Source: Promethearchaeota archaeon
Lineage (GTDB): Archaea > Asgardarchaeota > Thorarchaeia > Thorarchaeales > Thorarchaeaceae
Length of the DNA: 64,000 nucleotides
Assembly: GCA_014728035.1 (NCBI GenBank)
Contig: WJMJ01000002.1
Location: 860 to 64,859 of the forward strand
Direction: 5' to 3'
Below are positions 1,636-44,950 of this stretch, one piece after another. The position numbers and the translations under genes are program-made. Each line of letters starts with the position of its first letter. Within the stretch, counting starts at the first letter, position 1. Under the pieces are notes generated by a model that had not been told where the DNA came from, searched no databases, and was given only the letters and a program-made list of their open reading frames with translations.

Positions 1636-1796
1636 AAGAATTGCTCAAATTACTAATTTAATAAGCAAATTTGAGAGGTCATGTTTGTAGAATATTACAA
1701 AACGCAATCAGAGTAAACCTTTTTACATAATAAAAGAAGGAGAATTTAAGGACTGAAACTTAAACAGTGTAGGGATTGCATTTGGGAGGTTATTAC

Positions 1797-2426
1797 ATGA
1801 CCAAGAATCTCAATGATGACACCATTTCACAAATACTGACTCAAGCTATTCAGTACATGGATAGATGTGAATTTGATAAGGCTATTGTTGAACTGAAACA
1901 AGGTCTCATAAAAGATCCCAGAAATGTAGCATTCTTGGAAAGAATTGCGATTTGCAATCTCGAACTGAAACAGCCAAAATTAGCTCTCCAAACATTTGAT
2001 GAAATTCTATCAATAAACCCAAACTCTTGGAGAGTATGGGCAGATAAAGCGTTCATGCATCTATTACTGGACGAAGAAGAACCAGGTATAGAAGCTTTAG
2101 AGAGAAGTCTTAAGCTAAATCCAAGAAATGGACATGACTGGGAACTGCTCGCGTTAGCATATATTGGAAAAGAAATGTGGGCAGAAGCTTGTGATGCATT
2201 AGAAATTCTGTTACAGCTTGAACCTAATTCAGCTATGGCTTGGTACAATTACGCAGTATGTAATTTTTTCATGGAAAATAATGAAATTGCATTGATGGCT
2301 GCTGAGAGAGCTTTTGCAATTGACCCCCTGTTGAACGAGCTCGGAAAAGATTGGATTGAAATAGCTAAGATGGAAATTGAGGAATACAGGGAAAATGAAT
2401 TTCTTATTGGAATAATTGCAAGTTGA
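1797..2426 (+). CDS. TPR-repeat protein
   Basis: ORF 1776..2426. The likely start is ATG 1797, 8 nt after GGGAGG (1784-1789). Repeated 34-aa helical-pair pattern (AIVELKQGLIKDPRN, ALQTFDEILSINPNS, GIEALERSLKLNPRN, ACDALEILLQLEPNS, ALMAAERAFAIDP). Confidence 0.75.
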   Translation: MTKNLNDDTISQILTQAIQYMDRCEFDKAIVELKQGLIKDPRNVAFLERIAICNLELKQPKLALQTFDEILSINPNSWRVWADKAFMHLLLDEEEPGIEALERSLKLNPRNGHDWELLALAYIGKEMWAEACDALEILLQLEPNSAMAWYNYAVCNFFMENNEIALMAAERAFAIDPLLNELGKDWIEIAKMEIEEYRENEFLIGIIAS

Positions 2427-2434
2427 TATCCGTA

Positions 2435-4405
2435 TTATTTCTTCTTTGTTGATGCCTTCTTTTTAACTTCCTCTTTAGAATCATCTTCTATCTTTCCAAT
2501 AATATCGTCATATAAGGCATTAATACCATTCATTTCATTTTGAAGTTGGATTATCTCTTCTTTCAACTTGTGTTTACGAGCTGTCTGTAGTGCTTGTTGG
2601 ATAGCGGAAATCAAACGTTCCAATTCTAGTTTCTGTTCTTCAGGATTTTTCATCTGAAGCATAGCCATACGCTTTTTGGGCATTACACTAAGCAATCCAG
2701 AAATGGCATCAAGAGCCTCTTCTCTACTATCGAGTGTAGCTTGTAATTCATCCTGTTCTTCAGAAGCTGATAAAATTCGCGAGATTTGGTCAAGTACCTT
2801 TTTATGATCAGCAATTGCAGTTGAAATTATATTTTGAACTTCTTCCTCATCGTCTTCTTCAGCGTCCTCTAATCTATCTTCAAGTTGTGAAATTGCACCT
2901 TCTAAGAAGGATTTGCGGTCTGAAAGAGAGGTTCTTCTACGTTCCATCCATCTCCATTCACTTTCAATGCTATGAGTTAATGCAAGAGCTTGATTGATTT
3001 TCTCTCTATACTGATCCATCTTTTCACGTGCATCTTCAAGGTCATTTTCCAGATTATCAGTAACAAATGATAATTGATAACTTAGAATATTGCCTGCTTG
3101 TGCTTCTGTAAGAACACGACTCTCTTTGATGGCTCTAGCAGCCTCTTCCCAGAGTTTGTCCACTTCCTCATCGTCACAAATTGTACGGCCTGTTAGATCA
3201 AGTTCATCTGAAATTTGCTCGATTCGTTCATTTAATTCTTGAATTTCAGAGATCTTAGTCTTCAACAACGCCGTTCCTAATCGAGCATTAATTTCATTCA
3301 TCATTTTCTGACGTTCTTCTGGAACTTCATTGAGAACTGATGTGTTGTCTATAAGTAGTTGAAGTGCCTTTTCGAAAGCAGTTACCGCGTCAAGATACTC
3401 TTCATTTTGAACTAATTTGTCACCTTTTGTACGTAGTTTGAGTACCTCCTCTAAAACATCATAGGGGGAAGTTTTCAGAAGACTAACTCCAAGGTCATGT
3501 GCTTCTGGAGTGGTAAGATCAAGCGACAATTCATTCAGTAGCAATTCCACAATTACCAGACCATCTGATGAGGCAATAAACACATTTGGACCATCAGCAT
3601 CAATCCAATTAGCTTTGAAGCCGTTTACTTTTACTTTTCCAATGAAAATATTCCGTTTAATGTCCCAAACAGCTAAGTGATTGGAATTAATAGATGCAAC
3701 AATAAAATGTTGATTTGCCCATAGAGAAGTCAAAGGGTCTGAATTATCCGCTGAAAAAGTCTTGCTAACTTTCCATTCAATTCTGTCAAACACATAAATT
3801 GCATCTGAAGAAACTCCTGCAATGATGAAATCTTCATTTCCGGTAACAATAGCACCTTTAATCTTTTGATCAATAGGATGTATTTCTTTGGGCTGGTCGT
3901 TTTCTTTGTGCGTCCAGATAATCGGTTCAGATTTCTTTGTGCCGGTGCAAATATGGTGGTCATCAGACCATAGTGTGGTGATATCTGTTTTATGGAGTTG
4001 CCAGCTTGAAGTTTCATGAGTATCCTTTTTTATTGCAACTAGTCGACCATCCTTAGCACCAACGTAGAGATAATCACCTCGCAAAGTGGATGATATTGCT
4101 TGATAACTTAGCTCAAACCACCCCAACATGCCCCAGGTCTCTTTCTTCCAGACATAGACCCGTTTCTCACATGTTGCATAAATATGTTCATCATCAACAT
4201 GTACTGAAAGAGGTTCGGAACTGGTTTCACCTAGAACAGCCTTAATTTGCCAATCTTCGCGAGAAATCACTCGCACCCGTTGATCTGTGCATGCCACATA
4301 GAGATAACTCGTGTCATGAACAATGTAGGTTGCATCCATTTCTAGAACAGCAACAGTTTCATGACCAAGAGTTAGGCTCTCGGCTGCACCTCCCGTTTTG
4401 GACAC
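2435..4405 (-). CDS. Seven-bladed WD40/PQQ-like beta-propeller fused to a ~350-aa alpha-helical/coiled-coil region and a Lys-rich tail
   Basis: 656-aa ORF with a GTG start at 4405. Seven ~40-aa blades (YLYVACTDQRVRVIS, HIYATCEKRVYVWKK, YLYVGAKDGRLVAIK, HHICTGTKKSEPIIW, DFIIAGVSSDAIYVF, HFIVASINSNHLAVW, NVFIASSDGLVIVEL). Then E/K/L/Q-rich helices that begin with a TPR-like unit. C-terminus is KEEVKKKASTKKK. Confidence 0.8.
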   Translation of the reverse strand: MSKTGGAAESLTLGHETVAVLEMDATYIVHDTSYLYVACTDQRVRVISREDWQIKAVLGETSSEPLSVHVDDEHIYATCEKRVYVWKKETWGMLGWFELSYQAISSTLRGDYLYVGAKDGRLVAIKKDTHETSSWQLHKTDITTLWSDDHHICTGTKKSEPIIWTHKENDQPKEIHPIDQKIKGAIVTGNEDFIIAGVSSDAIYVFDRIEWKVSKTFSADNSDPLTSLWANQHFIVASINSNHLAVWDIKRNIFIGKVKVNGFKANWIDADGPNVFIASSDGLVIVELLLNELSLDLTTPEAHDLGVSLLKTSPYDVLEEVLKLRTKGDKLVQNEEYLDAVTAFEKALQLLIDNTSVLNEVPEERQKMMNEINARLGTALLKTKISEIQELNERIEQISDELDLTGRTICDDEEVDKLWEEAARAIKESRVLTEAQAGNILSYQLSFVTDNLENDLEDAREKMDQYREKINQALALTHSIESEWRWMERRRTSLSDRKSFLEGAISQLEDRLEDAEEDDEEEVQNIISTAIADHKKVLDQISRILSASEEQDELQATLDSREEALDAISGLLSVMPKKRMAMLQMKNPEEQKLELERLISAIQQALQTARKHKLKEEIIQLQNEMNGINALYDDIIGKIEDDSKEEVKKKASTKKK

Positions 4406-4648
4406 TATTATTCAGTCCTACTAAACATTCGCTATCAATGACGAGATTTTTTATCTCTTAAGGGATTTCCTCATGTATCATTTACGTGTTAATAGGTTGT
4501 TTTTCAAGGCAAAAATAGGTCGATTTATCGAAAACAATCCAAAAAATGAAAAAGGAACCGCGCCAAGGCGTACCTAAATAGCCAAAACACACTAATATAG
4601 TAGAAGTGAAATGAAAATACAGCCGCACTATTATCGGAGGAAAATCAT
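4406..4648. promoter_or_regulatory. Divergent AT-rich intergenic region shared by the propeller gene (-) and the tubulin-like operon (+)
   Basis: 243 nt. TATA-like TAATATA at 4593-4599, about 50 nt upstream of TTG 4649. A/T-rich box (gattttttatc, ~4445-4455) upstream of the minus-strand start. SD-like GGAGG at 4636-4640, 8 nt before TTG 4649. Confidence 0.4.
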
Positions 4649-7336
4649 TTGGATACCCATGCATGGAGGCGTGAGCTAGACAAGCTCGCTGATTTGAAAG
4701 GAATACTGATTTCTCTCAATCCCTCATTAGAAGAAAATGTTAGCAGACAAGTGCGTCATCTTTTTGACGTGTTTGCAAAAGTAACAAAATTGGAACAAGA
4801 GGTTGAGGAAGCAGGTTTCTTCAGTAAAAGAAAAGTGGAAGGTCAGTTTGAGAAAGTTCATTCTGAACTTGAAGAGGATTTCATGCGAGTCACTAGAGAT
4901 TTCGGTGACCTTGCAAATAAGGAATTCAGAAAAATCCAAACAGTTGTACCTGGGCTTCAAGCTCTAAGACCAAAAGAAGCAACAGCCCTCAAGAAACTAT
5001 CCTTTCCGAGCGTAGGAACTGGCGCACCACAAGATCTCGAAACACTCTTCGAATTTATGGATAAGTTTTCAAATACGGTCACAAGCCTACACGATGAGTT
5101 CGCACGTGAAGTAAAAAACCTGCTTGATGAGAATAAACGTATTGTAGAAACATACGAACGGCACATTACAATAGATAGAGGAGAAGTCACAACCACTATT
5201 TCCAATGATGATGTGTCTCAGATGCCACTTAATGACCTCATTAGAATCATGGAAAAGCTGAAGGTTGAACGGACCTATCTGGATGGGCGAAAAGACGAAG
5301 TTGGACGGATGCTAACGACAGCATTGATGACAGATGTAGAGGCACTCCAAGCATATGTTGAAACAGCTTCAAAGATTGGACTTGAATTGCCAATGGACTT
5401 TACACAAAAATTGAGAATCCTTGCCCGTGATGCTTCAAAAGCGTCAAATCTAACAACACTAATCAGTCTTGAAAACCAGCTCCAGACAGCCAGACTTCAA
5501 ATGGGGAATATGCTTCGAGATAAGATCATCAATCTCAAGCATGAAATAACTACAAAAATCGTTTCTGGTGGCATTCCTACCACATCGGAGGTCATTCCAG
5601 AAGCTCCAACCGTAGGTGTTGAAGGAAACGACATTGCAAATCTATTAGCTTCTTATCAGAAAATGGTTGAGTGGACAAGTCAAGTTCGTATTTCACTGAA
5701 GCAGGAAATAGAAGAATCTTTAGAGGAACTTGCAAAAGCTACCGACAATCCAAGTGATTGTGGGATAGAAGATGTGCTTGAAGCAAGAAAGGACATCGCT
5801 GATTGGAAGAAAGAACTATCTTCAGCTGACATTGATGGAATGATTAAGATATATCTCAAAGCATCAGAACGGGAAGAAGAATATAGAAAGCATGTTACTG
5901 ACTTGATTAAGAGCTACATTACAAGATTCAATGAATTAGCTACTTCTGCAGACAGAGTTCTAGATTATGCACAATTAAGTAAGAAGGCACCAAAAGTTGA
6001 AGACTTGGAAGGAGGAATTGTGTTTCTGATTGAATCTTTGAAAAACCTCAGACAAGCTGTTGAAAGTGGTGTAGCAACATTTCGTGACGCATGCCAACAA
6101 GAAATTGATGCTATCATCCAAGACCTTCAAACCATAAAACCTCAGTATGCAGAAATATTCATGCCGATTAATGTTGAACTAGAAGAAGGCTCAATGCGAA
6201 TCGAAGCAATGAATGAGTTCAGTGAAATTCGTTCTGAAATGAGAACCATCAAAGATACCATTCTAGCAAAGGCAAAAGATGCACTTGAAAACCTCCGATA
6301 TCGACTCCAAGTCAAGATTCGCCTTGCAGCAGCGAAACTGATGGGGGCGGGTGTTGAAATTCCAAATGAAATCCAAGAAGCTATCAGTGAGCTAAATAAC
6401 GTAGGCGTTGCAGCTGATAATGTGTTCAGCTTGCCGGCTATCGCCCGAAGAATGATAGAATTATATGAACACAAGATTACCGATAAGATTCTCGAAGTCC
6501 TCGAAGAAGAGGTTAAACAGCTGCTGGGTATGCTTGAGAAAGCTCAGAGTATTGGTGTAGACGTAGATAAGGAAATTGCAATTGTGAGTGCAATCAAGGA
6601 CGAACCACCTACTGAATTAGATGATGCTGCTGATGCTTTTGATAAGCTCGAAGGACTTACTACTTCTGAAGCAGTTCATAAGAAGGTTCGTTCCAGAGCA
6701 AATGAAGCATATCGTCAAATCAAAGATGCTGTATCTATCTTTGAAGAACAAGGTATGTCAGAATTTGTTCAGAGATTGTCAACCCTTCTTGATCGAGTAC
6801 CATCTCAGCTTTCAGAGAGCTCGAAACATGTGAATGAGGCTCTAGATGTGTGTCTGACTCTAGCAAATATCCAAGAGGAGATGCTTGATGTTATCAAGGG
6901 TATTGCAGCTAAAGAGAAGGAGGCTCATGATAAAGACATCCGAACAAAGAGCAAATATTACTCAACAATTGAACGTGTGTACAAAATGCACCCTGATGAT
7001 TTTAGCAGACTCATCTTTGATTTGAAAAAGATGGACAAACTAGAATCAAAACTGGAAACTGCAAAATCTCTTGACAATGCAATCGCGTCCTTTAATGAGC
7101 TATCAAGAATGCGAGTTGACTGGGTTGAAAAAGCTGCCAAGATGGATGATTGGCACAAATCCCTAAGAGTATACATGTCAGGATTCAGTGCGAGTGCAAG
7201 TGCAGACGAACGAAGTAAGTTTATTGACGATTCTACGAGGAAGATTCGTGAGACCTTTAGCAGAGAAGACATTAGCTCGTATCTATCTTGGGCCGTACAA
7301 GTATTGGTTCGTGCAATGGTAGAAAAACGCGGTTAG
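4649..7336 (+). CDS. 895-aa all-alpha-helical, coiled-coil-rich protein of unknown function; first gene of the tubulin-like operon
   Basis: Long ORF with a TTG start and a GGAGG RBS. E/K/L/A-rich heptad-like sequence throughout. No TM segment, P-loop or other catalytic motif recognised. A weak motif G-[LIV]-[ED]-[LIVD] after a helix recurs (IGLELP aa 243, CGIEDV aa 371, GAGVEIP aa 566, IGVDVD aa 635). Confidence 0.8.
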   Translation: MDTHAWRRELDKLADLKGILISLNPSLEENVSRQVRHLFDVFAKVTKLEQEVEEAGFFSKRKVEGQFEKVHSELEEDFMRVTRDFGDLANKEFRKIQTVVPGLQALRPKEATALKKLSFPSVGTGAPQDLETLFEFMDKFSNTVTSLHDEFAREVKNLLDENKRIVETYERHITIDRGEVTTTISNDDVSQMPLNDLIRIMEKLKVERTYLDGRKDEVGRMLTTALMTDVEALQAYVETASKIGLELPMDFTQKLRILARDASKASNLTTLISLENQLQTARLQMGNMLRDKIINLKHEITTKIVSGGIPTTSEVIPEAPTVGVEGNDIANLLASYQKMVEWTSQVRISLKQEIEESLEELAKATDNPSDCGIEDVLEARKDIADWKKELSSADIDGMIKIYLKASEREEEYRKHVTDLIKSYITRFNELATSADRVLDYAQLSKKAPKVEDLEGGIVFLIESLKNLRQAVESGVATFRDACQQEIDAIIQDLQTIKPQYAEIFMPINVELEEGSMRIEAMNEFSEIRSEMRTIKDTILAKAKDALENLRYRLQVKIRLAAAKLMGAGVEIPNEIQEAISELNNVGVAADNVFSLPAIARRMIELYEHKITDKILEVLEEEVKQLLGMLEKAQSIGVDVDKEIAIVSAIKDEPPTELDDAADAFDKLEGLTTSEAVHKKVRSRANEAYRQIKDAVSIFEEQGMSEFVQRLSTLLDRVPSQLSESSKHVNEALDVCLTLANIQEEMLDVIKGIAAKEKEAHDKDIRTKSKYYSTIERVYKMHPDDFSRLIFDLKKMDKLESKLETAKSLDNAIASFNELSRMRVDWVEKAAKMDDWHKSLRVYMSGFSASASADERSKFIDDSTRKIRETFSREDISSYLSWAVQVLVRAMVEKRG

Positions 7337-7355
7337 TAAAAAGGGGTAATAAATC

Positions 7356-8738
7356 ATGCAAAGAATCAGAGGAAGCGAAAGCGACGAAACAACCAAAGCA
7401 GCCGAGGTATTTGCCATTGGTATTGGAGAATGTGGGTCAAACATAGTAGGTTCATATTTACAGACGAGTAGGGATAAGAGACTCCCCTCCCGTGTCAGAG
7501 GTTACATGTTGATGAATACGGATAGGGCGGACCTTACAAAAGTCCGTTCGAAATATGGTATTCCAAAAGAAAACACCATGCTCTATGGTGCTTCTGAAAT
7601 TGGAGTCGGTGGCCGATTCATGGATGGATATAATGCAATGATGGAATCTAAAGATATCATCTTTGACCAGCTCGGAAACCTAGGGTTTGAAGGGGTGTCA
7701 GGTTTCTGCATTTTCACCAGCCTAGGAGGTGGTACTGGTTGTGGAGGAACACCGGCAATCATTGAACTTCTAAAGCAGAGGTTTCAAGAAGAGGAAGGTA
7801 GACGTATTTTCGTCTATGTGATTGGGGTACTTCCTTTTGAAGGGCAATCTAGTGAAGCCTTGAATTCTATCTGGGCAGTTTCAAAACTGCTTAGAGCACA
7901 GCTTCAAGAACGAGGAGCTGACCTCACTATTCTCCTAAGTAATCGTACCATGCTAAAGAGAATTCTCAATTCAAGGAAATCTGATAGTGTTGATTATCTG
8001 CAAAGAGAACTTGATGTAGACATCGCTAGTGTTGATCAGATTGAAACAAAAGTGCCATCTACTATTGATGAAACAGAAGATATGGATAGAAGGACTGAGC
8101 AGGCATTTGTAGAACTCGTGAATCCACTTGCACTCGATGTCATTGAGGCAATGCTCTCACCTGGAGTCTACGAGGATAACAAAGATGTATTTCCTACTAC
8201 TGACCTTGCAGACTACTCTAGAAAGCTTGACCCAGTAGTTGTACCAGCTCTGTACCAAGATATTGGTTTGATACCTGATGCAGGTAGCATGCCAAAGCAA
8301 CTGCGCTCAATGGTAGATTATGCTATCAAGGAAACATCGTATGCAGATGTTGGTGATCAACCGAATGCAGAAAGTGTCTATTATGTATTCAGCGGACCTA
8401 AGCATATATCAAAAGCAGAATATGGAATGCACTTGAAAGAATCACTTGACAAGTTTATCGCACCAGGCGCTGCGATTACACCATGTTATGTCCAATATTA
8501 TGATAAGGAACCAACTACCAATCTTCTTCTATTATTGGGATTGCCAAAAATACCAGAACTAGTACAAATTATCAATGAGGCAACTCAACTTGTCAACCTT
8601 CACAGCGGTTCTTCACCATTGAAACAAGGATGGTTCATGAGATCTAAAGGGACCACTAGAAAAGAATTGGTTAGTGCAATCAGCGATTTCAGAGAATTAT
8701 TCAGTTATTACATGACTCCTGGAGACACGATGGAATAG
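7356..8738 (+). CDS. Divergent tubulin/FtsZ/CetZ-superfamily GTPase
   Basis: 460 aa. ATG 7356 lies 8 nt after AGGGGT (7342-7347). T1 GIGECGSN (aa 22-29), T3-like GVGGRFMDGY, T4 signature SLGGGTGCGGTP (aa 122-133), T5 VLPFEGQ, T6 SNRTML, H7 AFVELVNPLALDVIEAMLSPG, T7 TTDLADY (aa 281-287). An FtsZ-like C-terminal domain is followed by a ~60-aa helical extension. Confidence 0.85.
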   Translation: MQRIRGSESDETTKAAEVFAIGIGECGSNIVGSYLQTSRDKRLPSRVRGYMLMNTDRADLTKVRSKYGIPKENTMLYGASEIGVGGRFMDGYNAMMESKDIIFDQLGNLGFEGVSGFCIFTSLGGGTGCGGTPAIIELLKQRFQEEEGRRIFVYVIGVLPFEGQSSEALNSIWAVSKLLRAQLQERGADLTILLSNRTMLKRILNSRKSDSVDYLQRELDVDIASVDQIETKVPSTIDETEDMDRRTEQAFVELVNPLALDVIEAMLSPGVYEDNKDVFPTTDLADYSRKLDPVVVPALYQDIGLIPDAGSMPKQLRSMVDYAIKETSYADVGDQPNAESVYYVFSGPKHISKAEYGMHLKESLDKFIAPGAAITPCYVQYYDKEPTTNLLLLLGLPKIPELVQIINEATQLVNLHSGSSPLKQGWFMRSKGTTRKELVSAISDFRELFSYYMTPGDTME

Positions 8739-8739
8739 G

Positions 8740-9828
8740 GTGAGAAGCTTGACTGAAGAGATTGGGAATACCGACTTAATTGAGAGATTACTCCTCATTA
8801 CAACCTTAAATTCTACCCTGATTCATTTCCTAATTACATCTCAAGTTGAAGGTTCTATAGACCCAGACAGAGTAGATTCATTGACTCAGGGACTTACACG
8901 TACTAGAAGTTGGTTGGAAGATTTGACTAACGCTCCTAAAATTCCTCCATCAACTCAGAACATTGTGGGGTTATTGGTCAAAAGACTTTCACAAATTGAG
9001 AGTGTCTTGCCAAAGCTTTCATTGATAGCAAAACAAGCTGAAGACAATAAAACACCCACTGCCGAAATCTTGTCTCTCCTTGATGGGGGAGAAATCACAC
9101 ACCCTGCTGTGAAAGAAGCAACCAAAGCTGCAGTCAGCACCATTCAAGATGATAAGCTTGAACCACTTGTTGATTTTTCATCACCTCAACAAGCTGAACC
9201 CAAAGAACCGTACAAAAAAGTCGGAGTCGAAAATGATGAATGGGGTCTCATTGGCCAAACTCAACGTATGATTCAACAATACTCAAAACGTTGTCATGCT
9301 CTGCTTCCAACATTCTGGCTTGAAGTTTTGAGAGAGCTTCACAGATACGAGTCCAGCTCCCCGTATATTGGGGATGCCATAGAAATGCCCGCAAGAATTG
9401 TTGTACGGATTGTGAAAGGACTTCTAACAGAAGCACCGGGAGCAAGATTATTGCAGGATCTGATGAAGAAAAGGGCGCAAGAGAATTATCTAGATGCTTC
9501 AGAAATAGAACGTGTCGAACGTGCAGTATCCAAGTATTTCTCAGGACTTGAGGATGTTCTTAAAGGTGAAGATGTGAATGTTCAAGAGAAAATTCTGGAC
9601 GCTCACACAGCGTTTGATGGATTTGGTTGGGGAGGTCCAGATCTTGAAAAACGTCTGATAAAAAGAATAAATCAACGGTGTGAAGAAGCAATGCAAAATG
9701 CTGAAACCGGAAGTGATCCTCAACGACAGGTTATCTATGCAGAAATAACCAAGTTACTCTGTAAACTCCAACATGCCATACTAGCTGAACCACGACTTCG
9801 TGAGATTCTGGCTCAGATGAAACCATAA
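8740..9828 (+). CDS. 362-aa alpha-helical protein of unknown function; third gene of the tubulin-like operon
   Basis: GTG start at 8740, one nucleotide after the TAG stop (8736-8738) of the tubulin-like gene. No TM segment and no recognisable enzymatic motif. Confidence 0.7.
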   Translation: MRSLTEEIGNTDLIERLLLITTLNSTLIHFLITSQVEGSIDPDRVDSLTQGLTRTRSWLEDLTNAPKIPPSTQNIVGLLVKRLSQIESVLPKLSLIAKQAEDNKTPTAEILSLLDGGEITHPAVKEATKAAVSTIQDDKLEPLVDFSSPQQAEPKEPYKKVGVENDEWGLIGQTQRMIQQYSKRCHALLPTFWLEVLRELHRYESSSPYIGDAIEMPARIVVRIVKGLLTEAPGARLLQDLMKKRAQENYLDASEIERVERAVSKYFSGLEDVLKGEDVNVQEKILDAHTAFDGFGWGGPDLEKRLIKRINQRCEEAMQNAETGSDPQRQVIYAEITKLLCKLQHAILAEPRLREILAQMKP

Positions 9829-9847: not shown

Positions 9848-9864
9848 AGTCCCGTAGTGGGACT
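9848..9864. terminator. Short hairpin between convergent genes
   Basis: agtccc (9848-9853) pairs with gggact (9859-9864) around a 5-nt loop, between the stop of 8740..9828 and the stop of 9863..10174. Confidence 0.25.
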
Positions 9865-10174
9865 AATCCTTATCTTCTTCTTCGTCTTCTTCCTTTGTGT
9901 AAAATTGGATGAAGACCTGTTTGTTTTCATGAAATGGAACTACTTTGTGAGAATATTTTCCATGAACCGTCAAGATGTGAGCTAATTCTTGGATAGCTTG
10001 ATTGTCGTCTTCACTAAGAACAAAATAATCTTCAAGATATTCAAGGTCTATAGCTTGGTCCGTATTTGCCAATTCAGCTACAAGCTCATCGACTTTTTCT
10101 TCCAGTTTCTTATTGAATTCACGATTCTTCTTGTGAATATCAGGGGCTTTCATAGTATGTTTTTTCCATGACAC
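9863..10174 (-). CDS. Small acidic hypothetical protein (103 aa)
   Basis: ORF with an ATG start and an acidic C-terminal tail (KEEDEEEDKD). No motif recognised. Confidence 0.55.
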   Translation of the reverse strand: MSWKKHTMKAPDIHKKNREFNKKLEEKVDELVAELANTDQAIDLEYLEDYFVLSEDDNQAIQELAHILTVHGKYSHKVVPFHENKQVFIQFYTKEEDEEEDKD

Positions 10175-10320: not shown

Positions 10321-11727
10321 ATGTCTGGCCTTAAGAAAATGCTGAGTCCGAAAGTAACGGCAGTAGTGGGTGTCTCAACATCGAACCCCTTTAGTCCCGG
10401 AAATGTGATTTTTAGAAAACTAGCTTTTGAGAATGGTCTCAAGACTTATCCAATCAATCCAAAAGGTGGAATGATTGAGGGCGTTCAAGCGTACAAATCC
10501 GTTGCTGAAGCACCTGATGATATTGATTTAGTAGTTATTTCAGTTCCAGCAAAATATGTTCCTTCAGTATTGAAAGAAGTTGCAGAAAAAGGAATTAAAT
10601 CAGTAATCGTAGTTTCTGGCGGATTCAGTGAGACCGGAGATACTGGTGAAAGCTTGCAAAAAGAGATAGTAGAGATTGCTGAGAAGAATGACATTACTAT
10701 GGTTGGTCCGAATTGTATAGGAGTTTTTGTTCCAGAAACACTGGACACATTTTTCTTGCCATCAGAACGAGTTGCTCGTCCGATCAAAGGTTCGGTTGCT
10801 TTAATCTCACAGAGTGGAGGTTGGTTGATTGAACGGCTTGAAGAGTTTGCTGAAAGAGATGTAGGTATAGCGGCTGCTGTATCAATTGGAAATGCAGCTC
10901 AAACGAAAGTTACTGATTTCGTCAAACACTTTGGTAAGGATGATAAAGTAAATGTAATCCTTTGTTATATAGAAGGATTTGGAGAAGGAGAAGGAAGAGC
11001 TTTTGTTGAAGCAGCTGCTGATATTGCTGAAAAAAAACCAGTAGTTGTTCTTAAAGGTGGACAGTCCGAAGCAGGACACAGAGCCACTCAGAGTCACACT
11101 TCTTCTCTAGCTGGAAATAGAGTCGTAGCTTCAGCGGCATTCAAACAATTTGGAGTAATCGAAGCAATTGATGAAGATGAAGTCATGGCATTCTCCAAAG
11201 TCTTCTCATTCAAACCAAAGACAATGAAGGGACCAAAAGTTGGATGCTTAACGGTAAGTGGCGGACATGGAGTAATTGCAACTGACGAAGCAGATCATTA
11301 TGGTTTGAAGTTGCCAATGTTTTCAGAAGAAGAGCAAGAGAAACTCAGGTCGCAAATGACCCCCTCATACCAACGAATTGCATCATTCAGAAATCCCTGT
11401 GATCTCACCGGAAGCGCGTCAGACTTAGATTATGAAAAAGTTCTAGATGTAATGCTTGAGCTGGAGAAAGTCGATGCAGCACTTCTTCTTATGTTACCCT
11501 ACGCTCCAGGAATTTCATTACAGGTTGGTGCAAGAGTAGCTAATGTTGGAAAACGGTACAAGAAAACAATCGTTGCATATGTTCCAGATTTGGAAAAATA
11601 TGAAGTGATAATCAGAGGATTTGAGCTGAATGGTATTCCTGTTGGAGATACTATCGAAGAAGCAGTTCAGATGATTCACGGAATCAATAAACGTTCACAG
11701 TATCTAAGAAGAATTGGAGCAATTTAA
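10321..11727 (+). CDS. Acetyl-CoA synthetase (ADP-forming) alpha subunit / CoA-binding NDP-forming acyl-CoA synthetase
   Basis: 468 aa. N-terminal CoA-binding fold (VAVVGVSTSNP...INPKG). Succinyl-CoA-synthetase-like region with the phosphohistidine motif TQSHTSSLAG (cf. SHTGSLAG in archaeal ACD alpha). No ATP-grasp beta subunit is adjacent. Confidence 0.8.
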   Translation: MSGLKKMLSPKVTAVVGVSTSNPFSPGNVIFRKLAFENGLKTYPINPKGGMIEGVQAYKSVAEAPDDIDLVVISVPAKYVPSVLKEVAEKGIKSVIVVSGGFSETGDTGESLQKEIVEIAEKNDITMVGPNCIGVFVPETLDTFFLPSERVARPIKGSVALISQSGGWLIERLEEFAERDVGIAAAVSIGNAAQTKVTDFVKHFGKDDKVNVILCYIEGFGEGEGRAFVEAAADIAEKKPVVVLKGGQSEAGHRATQSHTSSLAGNRVVASAAFKQFGVIEAIDEDEVMAFSKVFSFKPKTMKGPKVGCLTVSGGHGVIATDEADHYGLKLPMFSEEEQEKLRSQMTPSYQRIASFRNPCDLTGSASDLDYEKVLDVMLELEKVDAALLLMLPYAPGISLQVGARVANVGKRYKKTIVAYVPDLEKYEVIIRGFELNGIPVGDTIEEAVQMIHGINKRSQYLRRIGAI

Positions 11728-13976: not shown

Positions 13977-14022
13977 ATGAAGACGCAGAAGTTATATGCT
14001 AACAAATTCCGTCGGCATACCC

Positions 14023-14631
14023 ATGAAGCGAATTGGGGTTCTCATAAGCGGCAGAGGAACAAACCTACAAGCACTCATTGATGCTCAGAAACGAGGAGAA
14101 ATCAGTGGAGAGATTGCAGTTGTGATTAGCAACAAAAGCAAGGCGTATGGTCTCGAAAGAGCGCGTTCTGCAAATATCAAAACTGAAATTGTTACAAAGA
14201 AGACACATCCAATTCGTGAGGAACATGACAAACGAGTTGTGGAACTTCTCAAACAATATAATGTGGATTTTGTAGTTCTCGCAGGATATATGCGATTAAT
14301 CACGGAACATTTGATCAACCCGTTTCAAAATAGAATTATCAATATCCATCCTTCATTGCTACCATCCTTTCCAGGGATAGACGCTCAGAAACAAGCATTG
14401 GAATACGGTGTAAAAATTACTGGGTGCACTACACACATTGTCACTCTTGATATGGATGCAGGACCGATAATACTCCAAGAATATGTTCCAGTATTTGATA
14501 CAGATACTCGTGATACTTTGGCAGAGAGGATTTTGGAAAAAGAACATGAAATTCTTGTTGAAACCGTCCAGCTACTCTGTGAGGATAGAATTCGTGTTAC
14601 AGGAAGAATAACGAAAATTACTGGAGAATAA
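14023..14631 (+). CDS. purN: Phosphoribosylglycinamide formyltransferase (GAR transformylase, PurN)
   Basis: MKRIGVLISGRGTNLQ N-terminus, NIHPSLLPSFPG motif and MDAGPII. The ORF extends to ATG 13996, so the start is ambiguous between 13996 and 14023. Confidence 0.9.
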   Translation: MKRIGVLISGRGTNLQALIDAQKRGEISGEIAVVISNKSKAYGLERARSANIKTEIVTKKTHPIREEHDKRVVELLKQYNVDFVVLAGYMRLITEHLINPFQNRIINIHPSLLPSFPGIDAQKQALEYGVKITGCTTHIVTLDMDAGPIILQEYVPVFDTDTRDTLAERILEKEHEILVETVQLLCEDRIRVTGRITKITGE

Positions 14632-14633
14632 TT

Positions 14634-16025
14634 ATGTGCGGAGTATTAGGTATCCTCGGCAAGATGGATCTACCAATGGCAAGAGAATTACTACTTCTTC
14701 TAGCACATCGCGGGCAAGATGCAGCAGGGTTGCTCTGGGAATCCGAAAATATCTTCACTGAATCAAAAGCTACGGGTAGCCCAGCATTTATCGAGCTACC
14801 AAATGATTCACCTAGTATCATTCTTGGGAGTACACGATATCCAACTATAGGAAAGAGAGTTGCAAATGAGGAAGAACTAGATATTTTCGTGGGACCATTT
14901 CAATCAGAAAATGTTGCTCTGACACACAATGGAAACATCACAAATATGGCCTGTCAGACTGAACGAGAGTATTTTACAGATGCTCAATTTCTAACTGACA
15001 AGTTAGCTCAATATCTCAAAGAGAATGATAATCAATTACAGGATGCAATTGGTAAATTATCATCGGAGGTTGATGGAGCATTCAGTATTGTTGGAATTCA
15101 CGATAGCAAATTATTCGCGTTTAGAGATGCACGAGGGTTCAAACCGCTTGTCTTTGGAAGAAGTAAAGATCTCACAATAATCGCTTCAGAAAGCACTGTT
15201 CATGCAATGGCTGGGCTTACAATTGAGAGAGATGTATATCCAGGAGAGCTTCTCGTCTTCAGTAAGAATGGGAAACTCGAATCATTCTCAATTTCGCAAA
15301 ATGCATTGCATTCGCACTGTTTCTTCGAATATGTCTACTTTGCACATCCTGCTTCAACAATTGAAAATCAATTAGTCTATGACGTTAGATTCAGGCTTGG
15401 AAGAGCATTAGCACATGCATTTAAGAAAATGAATAAAGAGCCTCCAGACTATGTTGTTCCTGTACCCGATACGAGTAGACCGGCTGCACAAGCATTAGCT
15501 GAAACACTTGGTGTACCAATGCGTGAAATTATTTTGAAAAATCGTTATCTTGGACGCACTTTCATAGTTAGAACTCAGAAAGAAAGAAATGCAATGGCAA
15601 AAAGAAAGTATCTCTACTTGACTGATAAGATAGAGAATAAGACTATTCTCGTAGTTGACGACTCGATTGTTCGTGGTACAACAGCAAAAATGATTGTGCA
15701 TGACCTAAAAGAACTCGGTGCATCCAAAGTCTATTTTGCTGCTACCTGTCCACCTCAAGACCATCCATGCTATTATGGAATTGATATATCCACTGGCAAG
15801 GAGCTCATTGCTTCAAATTCCAGAAGAGAAGATATTCGAAAATACATTGGAGCTGATGCACTCATTTATCAAAATATGAGTGATTTAGTTAATGCAATAG
15901 GTCTAAAGGATCTCTGTCTTGCATGTCTTGATGGTGAATATCCGACTGAACATGCGAGATTCATCCAAGAACAGATTCAAGATGATGTAGAATCAGATGG
16001 ACGAGATTACGAACGGGTGGTGTAA
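14634..16025 (+). CDS. purF: Amidophosphoribosyltransferase
   Basis: N-terminal nucleophile MCGVLGI, Ntn glutaminase domain, and the PRTase motif ILVVDDSIVRGTT. Confidence 0.95.
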   Translation: MCGVLGILGKMDLPMARELLLLLAHRGQDAAGLLWESENIFTESKATGSPAFIELPNDSPSIILGSTRYPTIGKRVANEEELDIFVGPFQSENVALTHNGNITNMACQTEREYFTDAQFLTDKLAQYLKENDNQLQDAIGKLSSEVDGAFSIVGIHDSKLFAFRDARGFKPLVFGRSKDLTIIASESTVHAMAGLTIERDVYPGELLVFSKNGKLESFSISQNALHSHCFFEYVYFAHPASTIENQLVYDVRFRLGRALAHAFKKMNKEPPDYVVPVPDTSRPAAQALAETLGVPMREIILKNRYLGRTFIVRTQKERNAMAKRKYLYLTDKIENKTILVVDDSIVRGTTAKMIVHDLKELGASKVYFAATCPPQDHPCYYGIDISTGKELIASNSRREDIRKYIGADALIYQNMSDLVNAIGLKDLCLACLDGEYPTEHARFIQEQIQDDVESDGRDYERVV

Positions 16026-16984
16026 TGAAAATCGGAACGATTGCAAGTCATAGCGCACTGAACATCGTATCAGGAGCAAAAGCAGAAGGCTTTGATACAG
16101 TACTCTATTGCCAACCCAAACGTAGGGAATTCTATGAGTCGTTTGGTTTAGGAAAGTCTATTGTGGAAGTTGAATCGTTTGATGAAATACTCGACTTGGA
16201 TACTGAAGATGTGATAATGATTCCTCACGGTTCATTTGTTGCATATATTGGAGCAGATAAAATTCTCAAATCAGATTTGAATTTGTATGGAAACAAAGAA
16301 CTCCTAAAATGGGAAGAGGATAGAGAACTCAAATCACGATTGATGAAGGAATCAGGTCTCAGAGTGCCAAAAGAGTTTGATTCGGCTGATGATATTGATA
16401 CACCAGTCATTGTGAAGACCTACGGGGCTGCTGGAGGAGAAGGGTATTTCATTGCAAAGGACAAAGAAGAAGCAATCAGCAAAATGGATCCTGATGAGAA
16501 ATACGGGATACAGCAGTATGTCGTTGGAACCAAAGTATTCGTTACCTATTTCAATTCATTGAGTAAGGAACGCATTGAAGTATTTGGCGCTGATATCAGA
16601 TATGAAACGGATGCTGATGCAAACCTACGATTTGATGAGAAACCCTCCTTTGTCGTAATCGGAAATTTACCCTTAGTTCTTAGAGAATCCACTCTTGTGA
16701 GATATTTCAACATGGGAAAAAACTTTGTTCGTGGTTTTGAAAAACTAAACGGAGAAACCATCCCTGGGCCGTTTTGCATCGAGACTATCATTGATAGAGA
16801 ACAGAATATTTACACCTTCGAGTTTAGTGGCAGAATTGTTGCTGGTACCAACATATGGATTCCACATTCACCCTATTCATACTTACAATTTGGAGAAAAG
16901 ATGTGGATGGGAAAAAGAATTGCTCGAGAGCTGAAAGAATTAATCGAAGATGATGCGCTAGAAGATGCACTCTTACCAAAATAA
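16025..16984 (+). CDS. purP: 5-formaminoimidazole-4-carboxamide ribonucleotide (FAICAR) synthetase, archaeal PurP
   Basis: IGTIASHSALNIVSGAKAEGFDTVLYC N-terminus typical of PurP, with an ATP-grasp-like remainder. Its ATG overlaps the purF stop by 1 nt. Confidence 0.85.
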   Translation: MKIGTIASHSALNIVSGAKAEGFDTVLYCQPKRREFYESFGLGKSIVEVESFDEILDLDTEDVIMIPHGSFVAYIGADKILKSDLNLYGNKELLKWEEDRELKSRLMKESGLRVPKEFDSADDIDTPVIVKTYGAAGGEGYFIAKDKEEAISKMDPDEKYGIQQYVVGTKVFVTYFNSLSKERIEVFGADIRYETDADANLRFDEKPSFVVIGNLPLVLRESTLVRYFNMGKNFVRGFEKLNGETIPGPFCIETIIDREQNIYTFEFSGRIVAGTNIWIPHSPYSYLQFGEKMWMGKRIARELKELIEDDALEDALLPK

Positions 16985-16985
16985 T

Positions 16986-17495
16986 CTATAATTCTCTTTT
17001 CTCTTGTCTGCGGGTGTACAAATACACAAGAATTCCCAATATCAGTACTCCAAAATCCATACCGATAGCTCCAATCCAAGTACTATATACTCCAAGCCCA
17101 ACAGCAGGTATATCACTAAGGAATAGAGGCACACCGTCATAAGCTGAGTTGAAAACAGACATTGGCCAGCCTATAAAATCTAATATCCAATGGCTGAACA
17201 CAATTAATCCAACGTATAGACTTGAAAAGACAATTTGAATTTCTGAATCTTGACTACCTTGATTGACGGTCTGTGAATTATAGAACCTGAGGAAAATTGT
17301 TGATACTACAGCAACTAAGACCGACCAGAATCCTGCCATTACTAAACTATGAGTCATCCACAATTCTCCAAGATTCGGGTTCACAAAATATGGTAAATCT
17401 AACAATAGACTGGCTATTATAAGACACCAAAGTGGAATACTTCGGGAATATCTTTTGCTTGCAAATCCTACTCCAACATAGGCATGAGCTGGCAT
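16986..17495 (-). CDS. Membrane-bound metal-dependent hydrolase-like protein (DUF457/YdjM-like)
   Basis: 169 aa, polytopic. WMTHSL motif and a conserved His/Asp pattern (SHWILDF) resembling DUF457. Opposite strand to the pur genes. Confidence 0.55.
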   Translation of the reverse strand: MPAHAYVGVGFASKRYSRSIPLWCLIIASLLLDLPYFVNPNLGELWMTHSLVMAGFWSVLVAVVSTIFLRFYNSQTVNQGSQDSEIQIVFSSLYVGLIVFSHWILDFIGWPMSVFNSAYDGVPLFLSDIPAVGLGVYSTWIGAIGMDFGVLILGILVYLYTRRQEKREL

Positions 17496-17549
17496 AATAT
17501 TTCAAAATGCAATGTAGAAAAATATGATTCGTAAATGTATCATATGATT

Positions 17550-17915
17550 TCACATTCTATTTGATAACATACGACCAACAGTCATATGAATTATCTTGAA
17601 TGTATAAGGGTCAATTTTTCCTGATTTTTCAACTATTCTTTCGGATGAAATGGATCTAATCTGATGACATAGTGCGTATGATTCATTGTCAAGTCCAGTC
17701 CTTTTCTTAATGCGTACAACAGTCCAAAATTTCAGGTCCGTACTGGTAAGGGGCACTATAATCACTAGACCACTTTCCCCGGAATGTCGTCCTTCTTGCT
17801 TAGTTGGAACAGCTAGAACGATACATGGTCGAATTTTACCATTTATTTCTGATCCAATACCAATATCTAGTTGAACTTTAACAATCGCCCCCTGATAGTA
17901 TAGTCCCCCCGACAT
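17550..17915 (-). CDS. MazF/PemK-family toxin-like endoribonuclease
   Basis: 121 aa. GAIVKVQLDIGIGSEINGKIRPCIVL ... VIIVPLTS ... ALCHQIRSISSERI matches the MazF/Kid consensus (G.I..V.L.P..G.E..K.RP.vVL ... VP.TS ... Q.R.i...R). Confidence 0.75.
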   Translation of the reverse strand: MSGGLYYQGAIVKVQLDIGIGSEINGKIRPCIVLAVPTKQEGRHSGESGLVIIVPLTSTDLKFWTVVRIKKRTGLDNESYALCHQIRSISSERIVEKSGKIDPYTFKIIHMTVGRMLSNRM

Positions 17916-17946
17916 GTTATCCCCATCAATCCCGTATTATTTGATT

Positions 17947-18672
17947 CTAGAAACCTTTCAACTCAAATCTGACCGAGCTAGATGATGTTTGCCCAATAAT
18001 ATCCATCTGAGCACTCAGAGATTGAGCCCAGTCACGAATAAGACATTCTATCGTATCTATTATCTCACTGTCTAGATTATATTCTTTAGCTGATAGCGAT
18101 AACACAAGTGAAACTGCTAGAAACAAACATGAAAAATTGAAAGATAATACGAAAGATTGTAGCATCAGTCTCACAATCTCTACTTCATGATTGATTTCAC
18201 TAACGTTTTGTAGGTCAACTTCTGATATGGATAGAAATGAGATAAAATCAACATCTAAGTTGTTGAATAATAATGTATATTCCTCTACATTTTCTGTTTG
18301 AATCTCATATGAAGCTAATGACATTATATCAATAAATTCCATAATAATATTAATTGCGAAACGGAGATTCTCTCCAAGTATATAGCTATAATTCTTTTCT
18401 ATTATGACATCAATATCATTTTCTTGTACTTGTATGAAGAAATCCCTAATCGCTTTGATAGCTTTTCTAATTTCTTCTCTTGATGAACTCAAGTCCTTGA
18501 AAAAATCCTCGATATCCGTATTGATATTCTTGAACATGTCAAATAGAATTCTTTTGATATTGAGTCCAACATCACCAACTAACAAAGTCAATGGATCTCC
18601 AATCAGTTCCTTAAATTGGCCTTCTGTTTTTGTGAAGGGGCCCATTATGAAGATTTGTGACATCAAAACCAT
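17947..18672 (-). CDS. Hypothetical alpha-helical protein (241 aa) immediately upstream of the MazF-like gene
   Basis: ORF with an ATG start, 31 nt upstream of the MazF-like start on the same strand. I/L/E/D-rich helices. No motif recognised. Confidence 0.55.
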   Translation of the reverse strand: MVLMSQIFIMGPFTKTEGQFKELIGDPLTLLVGDVGLNIKRILFDMFKNINTDIEDFFKDLSSSREEIRKAIKAIRDFFIQVQENDIDVIIEKNYSYILGENLRFAINIIMEFIDIMSLASYEIQTENVEEYTLLFNNLDVDFISFLSISEVDLQNVSEINHEVEIVRLMLQSFVLSFNFSCLFLAVSLVLSLSAKEYNLDSEIIDTIECLIRDWAQSLSAQMDIIGQTSSSSVRFELKGF

Positions 18673-18808
18673 CTCATTAGTTGCTACAAGCTACTTTTCA
18701 TCCGTATTCATATATTTCTAACTATTTCTGACCTCAAAAACCCAGCGATAGGAAGACTTACAAAGAATAAGTTTCGGGCTGCGTTTGTTCATTACAGGAG
18801 TCAATTCG

Positions 18809-19882
18809 ATGAATAGGCCAACCATAGGAATGATAGGTTCACACAGTGCAGAAGAGATAGGAGTTGCTGCAAAAGCCAACGGATTCGATACTGTTGTTGT
18901 TTGTCAGAAAGGCAGGGACAAAATATACTCTATCTACAATAATCATCTCTATGACCATATCATTGTTCTTGACAAATTTGGAGATATCATCAATAAGGAA
19001 GTCCAAGATCAATTAATGGAACTTGAAACCCTATGGATTCCCAATAGATCATTTTCTGTATACGTTGGATACGACGAAATTGAAACTAAATTCGAAGTAC
19101 CAATATATGGAAATAGACACATTCTTCGAGTTGAAGAGAGAGGAAATCCAAAGGACCAATATTGGTTAATGGAGCAGTCTGGAATTCGAATTCCAAAACA
19201 GATGACTCCGGATTCAATTGATAGATTAGCAATTGTAAAAGTGCAACAAAAACACAGACCATTAGAACGTGCATTCTTCTACGCTTCAAGTCCTGCCGAT
19301 TATGATAAGACCAGTGAGAAGATGATTGAAGAAGGTCTGATTACTGAGGAAGACCTCAGACAAGCCACAGTTGAGGAATTCATCATTGCACCACGATTCA
19401 ATGCTAATTTTCAAGCCTATGCGATGAGCAATTATTTTGGTGATATTGATTTAGTCGGGTTTGACGATAGAGTTCAGACAAATCTATCAGGACTGCTAAA
19501 CTTACCAGCTCAAGACCAGTTAAAATTGGAGATAAAAATTCTCAATGAAGAAGTTGGTCATAAGGGAGTAACCATGCGGGAGAGCAAAAAACCATTGGTC
19601 TATGATGCCGCAGAATTGCTTCTTACTGGAGTTAAGAAACACTTTCCACCCCGAATGATCGGTCTATTCTCTCTTCAAGGAGCAATAACAAAAGATTCTG
19701 AGTTCGTAGTATTTGATTTGAGTCCAAGAGTACCAGGAGCTCCCTGTGTTGGACCAACTAGTCCTGAAATGAGGAGACTGTCATTGAAATTTAAGCGAGA
19801 TATCCAAACACCATTAGACCTATGTATGATGGACATCAGTAGAGCAGCTGAAGAAAATGCTCTAAATGAAGCTTCCACATAA
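18809..19882 (+). CDS. PurP paralogue (FAICAR synthetase family)
   Basis: ORF 18785..19882. The likely start is ATG 18809, after CAGGAG (18795-18800). PTIGMIGSHSAEEIGVAAKANGFDTVVVC parallels the PurP N-terminus. Confidence 0.85.
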   Translation: MNRPTIGMIGSHSAEEIGVAAKANGFDTVVVCQKGRDKIYSIYNNHLYDHIIVLDKFGDIINKEVQDQLMELETLWIPNRSFSVYVGYDEIETKFEVPIYGNRHILRVEERGNPKDQYWLMEQSGIRIPKQMTPDSIDRLAIVKVQQKHRPLERAFFYASSPADYDKTSEKMIEEGLITEEDLRQATVEEFIIAPRFNANFQAYAMSNYFGDIDLVGFDDRVQTNLSGLLNLPAQDQLKLEIKILNEEVGHKGVTMRESKKPLVYDAAELLLTGVKKHFPPRMIGLFSLQGAITKDSEFVVFDLSPRVPGAPCVGPTSPEMRRLSLKFKRDIQTPLDLCMMDISRAAEENALNEAST

Positions 19883-19941
19883 TTCATAACCAATAACAAC
19901 AGGCGAAAATCAGGTCTGAAATAACTCTGAGAGGTTAATTC

Positions 19942-20907: not shown

Positions 20908-20908
20908 C

Positions 20909-21607: not shown

Positions 21608-21616
21608 GGTGATGAT

Positions 21617-38289: not shown

Positions 38290-38290
38290 A

Positions 38291-43941: not shown

Positions 43942-44058
43942 TTTCGATCCCTGCGCATTTCATAAGAAAGAACATCATCAACTGAGCATGTGTTTTGCAA
44001 TATCTGATTACTATTTGTAACCTTATGATAGTTTATAGTACCAATACACAATTTTTCA

Positions 44059-44793: not shown

Positions 44794-44950
44794 CGTGCAT
44801 GACCTCAGAACATGATAAGTAAGATTTACATAATTTTGTTAATAGTATGTCTAGTATATTATCTTGTAATATTTTTGAAAGATATTAATTCATAAGGGGA
44901 ATCTTTACTTATTTTGAATTCACTAATTACATGTACAGAAGGAATATCTG

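Follow-up and report, generated by a model that had tools for sequence, protein, structure and literature searches.

Several tubulin-family polymers are encoded together with dedicated partners, for example BtubAB with BtubC, TubZ with TubR, and FtsZ with EzrA or ZapA. Work on Asgard archaea has so far centred on actin, FtsZ and the rare true tubulins. A further group was reported in 2023 by Santana-Molina et al., who described from four sequences a 'novel CetZ-like group in Asgardarchaeota' and named it Asg.Tub (PMC9871819). In their trees, the group lies outside CetZ in an unstable position that changes with the method, either between CetZ and the tubulins or beside CetZ; furthermore, the published C-terminal hidden Markov models do not match each other (PMC9871819). 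The neighbouring genes were given as unknown and mostly as having coiled-coil regions; they were not analysed, and no function was proposed for Asg.Tub (PMC9871819). Here, we consider a locus of this type in a 64,000-nucleotide (nt) stretch of DNA from a Promethearchaeota archaeon of the Thorarchaeia (GenBank assembly GCA_014728035.1, contig WJMJ01000002.1, positions 860 to 64,859 of the forward strand), hereafter called the window. The core of the locus is an operon of three genes, which encode a tubulin-superfamily GTPase, a large helical partner and a small helical partner. We estimate a probability of about 0.6 that these genes specify a dedicated three-component filament system of the tubulin superfamily that is specific to Asgard archaea and widespread among them.

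The window GTPase can be assigned to Asg.Tub, because it is orthologous to two proteins which the published files list for this group. These files name OLS26264.1 (Heimdall LC-3), OLS30664.1 (Thor AB-25), KXH77455.1 and PWI48967.1 (PMC9871819). The first corresponds to match P0113 of our search and is 51% identical over 97% of the window GTPase; the second, from the Thor AB-25 locus (L034), is 87% identical. In one database record, the Heimdall LC_3 orthologue bears the name 'Tubulin-like protein CetZ'. Hence, a preliminary description of this DNA, made from the sequence alone, went too far in calling the locus undescribed: the GTPase had been published as Asg.Tub in 2023, with unknown coiled-coil neighbours (PMC9871819). 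Compared with the four sequences of that report, the family is recorded here in at least 124 species-level genomes. What is new, from profile comparison, is that the two neighbours represent two specific orphan families which are invariably linked to Asg.Tub across the Asgard classes.

Gene order around the GTPase in Asgard archaea

Our check of the open reading frames (ORFs) in the window recovered all five consecutive genes that the preliminary description had joined into one neighbourhood. Three of them form the operon on the plus strand. The gene of the large all-helical partner (4649..7336; 895 amino acids, aa) has a TTG start, with GGAGG 9 nt before it. After a spacer of 19 nt follows the gene of the Asg.Tub-type GTPase, the core of the putative system (7356..8738; 460 aa), whose start is preceded by a GGGGT motif; after a further spacer of 1 nt, the gene of the small helical partner (8740..9828; 362 aa) begins with GTG. 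The intergenic region upstream of the operon (4406..4648) measures 243 nt and has 34% GC, compared with 38% for the whole window. It is presumed to be the promoter region of the operon, which in Thorarchaeia would be shared with a divergent propeller gene. No iteron or centromere-like repeat array was found in this region, and scans for sigma-70 promoters and terminators gave background levels, such models not applying to archaea. Genes of the SepF, FtsA, Min or TubR type are missing from the five-gene block, as is a second gene for a tubulin. Its five proteins are free of transmembrane segments, the highest Kyte-Doolittle mean over 19 residues being 1.54. Within the window, there was no match to rRNA, tRNA or other Rfam families and no compositional island around the locus. 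In its observations – gene positions, the AT-rich spacer, the two narrow gaps with the GTG start, Shine-Dalgarno-like sites before the first two operon genes, and the lack of division genes, TubR-like adaptors, further tubulins and membrane proteins in the block – the preliminary description is therefore confirmed.

For the comparison of gene order, 89 related loci were gathered, which are labelled as Thor-, Sif-, Borr-, Hermod-, Asgardarchaeia- and Heimdall/Hod-archaea. All ORFs of these loci were searched with profiles of the three operon proteins and of the propeller, tetratricopeptide repeat (TPR) and downstream ORF proteins. Our counts refer to the 85 non-redundant loci among the first 87; the last two (L088 and L089) were handled separately. 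A homologue of the large partner is encoded immediately 5' of the GTPase gene and on the same strand in 77 out of 78 loci with enough sequence, and the sole exception is an error-prone contig end. For the small partner, a homologue immediately 3' of the GTPase gene is present in every locus with enough sequence (82 out of 82). The gaps are short in all lineages, ranging elsewhere from -8 to about 100 nt. Pairwise comparison bears out that the partners of different Asgard classes are homologous, but they are only 18-28% identical, as against 50-60% for the GTPase, which marks them as fast-evolving. Clustering of all flanking ORFs revealed no other gene family that accompanies the GTPase in all lineages. 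Because the order recurs in distant Asgard lineages while the other flanking genes differ, the three-gene arrangement exceeds chance. So invariant a linkage argues strongly, on comparative grounds, for a joint function of the trio. Of the five-gene unit proposed earlier, synteny thus leaves three genes: the operon is conserved, whereas the divergent propeller gene and the TPR gene are neighbours only in Thorarchaeia.

For each of the three operon proteins, the homologues are of Asgard origin. The closest genome is the Thorarchaeota metagenome-assembled genome (MAG) SHMX01000004.1 (isolate BC), in which the GTPase is 97% identical to that of the window, the large partner 92% and the small partner 88%. 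A single contig labelled 'Odinarchaeota' clusters with the Hermod-type sequences. At least one Hodarchaeota MAG holds two copies of the GTPase (the matches P0091 and P0116 bear locus tags of one MAG). In a locus from an Asgardarchaeia MAG (L005, 8001-9323), the GTPase gene is broken into ORFs of 389 and 42 aa; we attribute this to a frameshift or an assembly error, because the 42-aa ORF matches the C-terminus of the family.

Sequence and predicted structure of the three proteins

The product of 7356..8738 matches the Pfam family Tubulin (PF00091) at residues 17-201 with an E-value of 3e-19 and 70.5 bits, above the cut-off of 33. By this measure, it is a bona fide, if divergent, GTPase of the tubulin/FtsZ superfamily, in keeping with the preliminary description. 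Its best-scoring solved relative is CetZ1 of Haloferax volcanii (4b46; E 3e-10, or 8e-12 with the family profile), with which it has motifs of the GTPase domain in common. Next come the Asgard AtubA, OdinTubulin, BtubA/B and gamma-tubulin with approximately 26 bits each. All matches to solved structures are limited to the N-terminal GTPase domain (query residues 16-161 in the case of 4b46). Likewise, the family profile aligns with CetZ1, CetZ2 and the CetZ of M. thermophila at query residues 13-178 only, i.e. homology to CetZ does not extend over the whole protein. With the FtsZ equivalog model of NCBIfam (TIGR00065), the GTPase scores 33.9 bits, which falls far short of the cut-off of 295.2.

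The GTPase shares 50-89% identity with more than 120 Asgard proteins. Identity groups by taxon (Thor 73-97%, Hermod/Sif/Borr about 60%, Heimdall/Hod 50-55%), as would fit vertical inheritance. In 30 diverse members of the family, mean column identity is 58%; conservation as strong as this is expected for a polymer with many contact surfaces. The same 30 members served to judge the motifs. Invariant among them are the loops T1 (GIGECGSN), T3 (GVGG), T4 (GGGTGCGG), T5 (VLPF..Q..E..N) and T6 (SN) as well as the H7-T7 region (F..L.NPLA......ML.PG....K.V.PTTDLAD), where the T7 residues D283 and D286 (PTTDLAD) never vary. The signatures of the tubulin/FtsZ superfamily are thereby present: GxGxxG in T1, GGGTGxG in T4 and, behind helix H7, a T7 loop with acidic catalytic residues. 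In FtsZ, tubulin and CetZ, the acidic T7 residues matter only for hydrolysis across the longitudinal polymer contact, and to our knowledge every characterised relative whose T7 loop is intact forms polymers. Since all GTP-binding loops and the acidic T7 residues are kept, the protein probably binds GTP, and its GTP-dependent polymerisation is likely. In the published alignment of Asg.Tub with tubulins, the PTTDLAD stretch coincides with the T7 loop of tubulin to within about three columns. This placement was preferred to residues 218-226, which resulted from a global alignment to an approximate E. coli FtsZ with a probability of 2%.

The T4 loop, whose codons lie at 7725-7748 of the window, contains an unusual cysteine (GGGTGCGG). 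The same cysteine is found in Halo.Tub (TKGTGCGSTP) and in ODS40989.1 from Altiarchaeota (GGGSGCGAGP) (supplement 45, PMC9871819), and ODS40989.1 also has the T1 motif GIGECG in common with Asg.Tub. These shared features hint that Asg.Tub, Halo.Tub and ODS40989.1 may form one deeper clade.

For the large partner (4649..7336), AlphaFold2 predicts, from an alignment of 40 sequences, a strand-free structure with 34 helices, each about 20-44 residues long (mean predicted local distance difference test score, pLDDT, 84.6; predicted template modelling score, pTM, 0.37). The model points to helical bundles that are stacked into an elongated shape, and not to long continuous coiled coils, and the long coiled coils ascribed to the operon proteins in the preliminary description are accordingly doubtful. 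The protein consists of a conserved N-module (approximately residues 1-360) and a conserved C-module (approximately 390-895); in Heimdall-type members, an insertion of about 300-500 residues between the modules raises the total length to 1170-1405 aa. Across classes, 14 residues are invariant, including R558, W835-H836 and Y878-L879. When 1.84 billion representative proteins were searched exhaustively with HMMER and the profile of this family, only 34 matches resulted, either full-length members or fragments, and every named one comes from an Asgard archaeon, Baldrarchaeia included. Going by these matches, the large-partner family exists only where the GTPase does.

No significant fold match in the PDB was found for the large partner (Foldseek, best E 0.6), a search in which the whole chain performs weakly, the model being elongated with a pTM of 0.37. 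The protein likewise has no consistent match in Pfam and none in NCBIfam or among PDB sequences. Internal repeats could not be detected either: profile-profile comparison of seven helical segments reached probabilities of at most 12.6%.

The small partner (8740..9828) is predicted to contain N-terminal helices, a disordered linker (residues 113-150) and a conserved alpha-helical C-terminal domain (mean pLDDT 78.7; mostly above 90 at residues 160-362). Conservation across classes is confined to the C-terminal domain, which includes the invariant residues D166, Y181, P190, L229, E231, A232, P233, G298, E303, R305, L357 and K361. Neither a PDB fold nor a Pfam, NCBIfam or PDB sequence match was found. 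In the Heimdall-type locus L089 (9421-11229), the homologue measures 602 aa instead of the usual 300-390 aa, and its length suggests that it carries a fused extra domain.

Candidate relatives of the two partners in eukaryotes and bacteria – gamma-tubulin complex proteins (GCPs), tubulin cofactors, EzrA/spectrin and SMC-like proteins – were rejected for lack of significant matches; the Pfam scan covered 17 and 18 diverse members of the two families. The Foldseek matches of both partners in the PDB, all with E-values of at least 0.4, comprise dynein tails, vinculin, spectrin and designed helical proteins, and a GCP chain among them at E 7.5 is noise. Paralogy between the large and the small partner was considered too, and none was detected.

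Other genes around the operon

The two remaining genes of the five-gene block lie upstream of the operon. The propeller gene (2435..4405, minus strand) encodes a protein of 656 aa with weak but consistent matches to WD40/PQQ-type beta-propellers at approximately residues 29-286. Of the propeller and coiled coil earlier ascribed to it, the propeller is upheld by these matches, and the remainder is a charged helical tail. The neighbouring plus-strand gene (1797..2426, within the ORF 1776..2426; about 209 aa) has its likelier start at ATG 1797, with GGAGG before it; TPR_2, TPR_9, TPR_14 and other TPR families exceed the Pfam cut-offs, so that its identification as a TPR protein stands. In Thorarchaeia, the propeller gene accompanies the operon at 39 out of 43 loci and the TPR gene at 42 out of 43, as against none of the 19 loci of other lineages. 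These two genes are outside the conserved core and represent either a Thor-specific addition or simply synteny retained among close relatives.

Loci of the Heimdall type and of Asgardarchaeia have small GTPase genes of the Arf/Ras family 5' of the trio, at a distance of no more than 8 kb and in the same orientation (L001, 2102-3037; L005, 4532-5113; L007, 1-468; L085, 1-774; L089, 749-1273 and 1345-1917); in L005, the gene is immediately 5' of that for the large partner. None was seen near the trio in Hermod-like and Sif/Borr loci, and the approximately 60 Thor loci contain just one, 3' of the trio and on the opposite strand. This proximity could reflect a functional link or chance, as Asgard genomes have many small GTPases.

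On the 3' side, a 103-aa, highly acidic ORF (9863-10174, minus strand) follows the operon immediately. It is kept only in the closest relatives (L008, L036, L039 and L065) and weakly matches the PAV1-137 bromodomain-like family (E 0.0075). The next gene (10321-11727) encodes a protein resembling ADP-forming acyl-CoA synthetases (CoA_binding_2 and Succ_CoA_lig). A gene of this kind follows the operon in 55 Thor loci and in four Sif/Borr loci; it is the sole flanking family that extends beyond Thorarchaeia, probably through synteny that was retained and not because of a functional link.

Elsewhere in the window, a cluster of purine-biosynthesis genes (13996-23785) comprises a formyltransferase, an amidophosphoribosyltransferase-like protein, two PurP-like DUF1246/DUF1297 paralogues, a SAICAR synthetase-PurS fusion and a PurQ-like protein, and is broken by a MazF/PemK toxin gene at 17550-17915. 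Six two-component signalling genes are clustered at 34717-46021; they encode PAS/GAF histidine kinases of 473, 742, 988, 895 and 356 aa and a double-receiver response regulator of 244 aa. A protein of 1025 aa (57511-60588) with PQQ/FG-GAP beta-propellers, bacterial TSP3 repeats and a PPC domain is probably secreted or exposed at the surface, and is unrelated to the propeller gene beside the operon.

Alternative explanations and comparison with known systems

According to the model that we favour, a dedicated filament system, all three proteins would be soluble and cytoplasmic. Asg.Tub would bind GTP and, in the GTP-bound state, assemble into protofilaments whose subunits are joined head-to-tail. 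With D283/D286, the T7 loop of each subunit would complete the GTPase site of its neighbour, so that the filaments would be dynamic and under the control of the nucleotide, like those of FtsZ, CetZ and tubulin. The two co-translated genes would encode accessory proteins. The large one, a helical-bundle protein with conserved ends and a lineage-variable middle, could serve, along filaments or between them, as an elongated scaffold, a spacer or a cross-linker; the small one, with its conserved C-terminal domain on a flexible linker, may be an adaptor or assembly regulator, such as a nucleator, cap or tether. Few dedicated accessory proteins are known for archaeal tubulin-like polymers, and the two partners would join them if they bind the filament. 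A role in cell shape or internal organisation rather than in division is likely, given the analogy with CetZ and given the lack of any division-gene context. The filament system with dedicated adaptors envisaged in the preliminary description is thus partly supported: the trio is co-conserved and the two partners fall into no characterised family, whereas the propeller and TPR proteins do not belong to it.

Several observations weigh against this model. The C-terminal half of the GTPase gives no sequence alignment to any solved structure of the tubulin family, the matches of C-terminal stretches being insignificant. Neither partner model has recognisable fold relatives, and the roles proposed for them are generic as a result; that they physically bind the GTPase is deduced from co-conservation. 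The trio is not obligatory in every copy, because one paralogue from Hodarchaeales (L088; 4548-9347 and 10401-17347) has the large partner and the GTPase without the small partner. This paralogue is divergent, with the T4 loop GGGSGCGG, and its GTPase gene is followed by a stretch of 1 kb without ORFs and then by a gene of more than 2,647 codons. Finally, the literature that we searched contains no biochemical, structural, functional or cellular work on the three proteins.

Going one step further, it is possible, though we hold it for the less probable alternative, that a third cytoskeleton of the tubulin type, separate from FtsZ as well as from the AtubAB/Odin tubulins, extends through the whole Asgard phylum, was inherited from an early Asgard ancestor and has two dedicated filament-binding proteins without relatives elsewhere. 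If this were true, a prokaryotic system of tubulin plus accessory proteins, scaffold- or nucleator-like, would predate the eukaryotic microtubule-associated machinery, and in the Heimdall lineage the Asg.Tub system may cooperate with Arf-type GTPases.

The alternative that survives best, although we consider it unlikely, is a stable complex without filaments, in which the GTPase serves as a nucleotide switch or regulated subunit held by chaperone-like or sequestering helical proteins. The strict co-encoding of the partners with the GTPase would suit such a complex equally, the large partner is all-alpha and comparable in size to what is generally known of tubulin cofactor D, and the C-terminal half of the GTPase cannot be aligned to polymerising relatives. 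This explanation leaves unaccounted for, however, that both acidic T7 residues and the rest of the motif set related to polymerisation are invariant, given that characterised relatives with an intact T7 loop are generally known to polymerise.

Still less probable in our view is a filament module for membrane trafficking or remodelling, which would operate with small GTPases or coat-like proteins in parallel to Halo_adaptin. Halo.Tub, whose members include proteins of Haloquadratum walsbyi, lies close to Asg.Tub in published trees (PMC9871819). Makarova et al. (2024) described a CetZ-like protein of Haloquadratum in Halo_adaptin, an ESCRT-like sorting system with beta-propeller proteins (PMC10936438); this CetZ-like protein may differ from the Halo.Tub members. 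In line with such a module, a propeller-plus-helical gene lies divergently beside the operon in Thorarchaeia, and loci of Asgardarchaeia and of the Heimdall type have Arf-family genes 5' of the trio in the same orientation. Yet neither association is conserved across lineages, and with so many small GTPases in Asgard genomes the proximity of the Arf-family genes may be due to chance. Halo_adaptin comprises a Vps4-like ATPase, a PspA/ESCRT-III-like protein, winged-helix proteins, IG-like adaptin proteins and a membrane protein; none of these occurs among the five genes, and no domains of this type were found in their flanks. What the two systems have in common is a beta-propeller, and this in Thorarchaeia only, and the large-partner family has no relative in haloarchaea. 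The membrane remodelling proposed in the preliminary description finds no support either: the window is without a gene for a membrane protein, an ESCRT component (ESCRT-III included), Vps4, an IG-like adaptin or a dynamin-type protein.

It is very improbable that the GTPase is an ordinary CetZ or FtsZ paralogue with unrelated chance neighbours. In favour of this, one can cite the database name of the Heimdall LC_3 orthologue and the rank of CetZ as best solved relative; but homologous neighbours stand in the same order where all other synteny is gone, which largely refutes the idea. In addition, the score with the FtsZ model is far under its cut-off, the CetZ match covers the N-terminal domain only, and published trees put Asg.Tub outside CetZ, in an unstable position (PMC9871819). 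The preliminary description had allowed for a GTPase inside ordinary FtsZ or CetZ with characterised, unrelated neighbours; for the operon, both the scores and the orphan partners speak against this.

The smallest chance is left to a cassette for segregating the DNA of a plasmid, a virus or an integrated element, in the manner of TubZ-TubR-tubC or PhuZ. The operon is compact and centred on a tubulin-like GTPase as in TubZRC, but the idea is largely refuted: the locus lacks any helix-turn-helix or other DNA-binding adaptor family and centromere-like repeats, there is no relative in 2.9 million viral contigs, the trio lies on complete chromosomes among housekeeping genes, similarity follows taxonomy, and composition does not shift. 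An anti-phage defence system was rejected as a candidate, PADLOC having given nothing beyond coiled-coil noise.

If we return to the filament system that we favour, several known systems resemble it in part. The segregation system TubZ-TubR-tubC (with TubY) of plasmids and phages is likewise a small operon around a divergent tubulin-like GTPase with dedicated partners; the window locus, however, is chromosomal, lacks a DNA-binding adaptor and centromere repeats, and has no viral relatives. The FtsZ filament is regulated by helical-bundle or coiled-coil proteins, among which EzrA is a spectrin-like helical-bundle rod. In contrast to FtsZ, the Asg.Tub locus has neither a membrane anchor nor a division-gene context, in the block as well as in the conserved neighbourhood, and fold, Pfam and PDB sequence searches revealed no homology of the partners to EzrA, Zap or SepF. 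In Prosthecobacter, the tubulin-family polymer of BtubA and BtubB is encoded in an operon with BtubC, a binding protein of helical repeats (TPR-like). BtubAB is a heterodimer near eukaryotic tubulin, whereas the Asgard operon encodes a single CetZ-like GTPase with partners unrelated to BtubC; and the TPR gene of the window is a neighbour of the operon only in Thorarchaeia. For CetZ, we know of no conserved operon partners; its role in shape and organisation rather than division is a plausible analogy for Asg.Tub.

AtubA/B/C and OdinTubulin belong to the same phylum and superfamily as the window GTPase; AtubA and AtubB are likewise encoded in one operon. They are near eukaryotic tubulin, patchy in distribution, and form mini-microtubules as heterodimers. 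The window GTPase differs from these Asgard tubulins in being encoded by a single gene and in its similarity to them, which amounts to about 26 bits in the N-terminal domain only. The true tubulins are far less widespread in the Asgard phylum than the Asg.Tub family, whose conservation is very strong; together with its two Asgard-only partners, this family constitutes a concrete, testable three-protein system.

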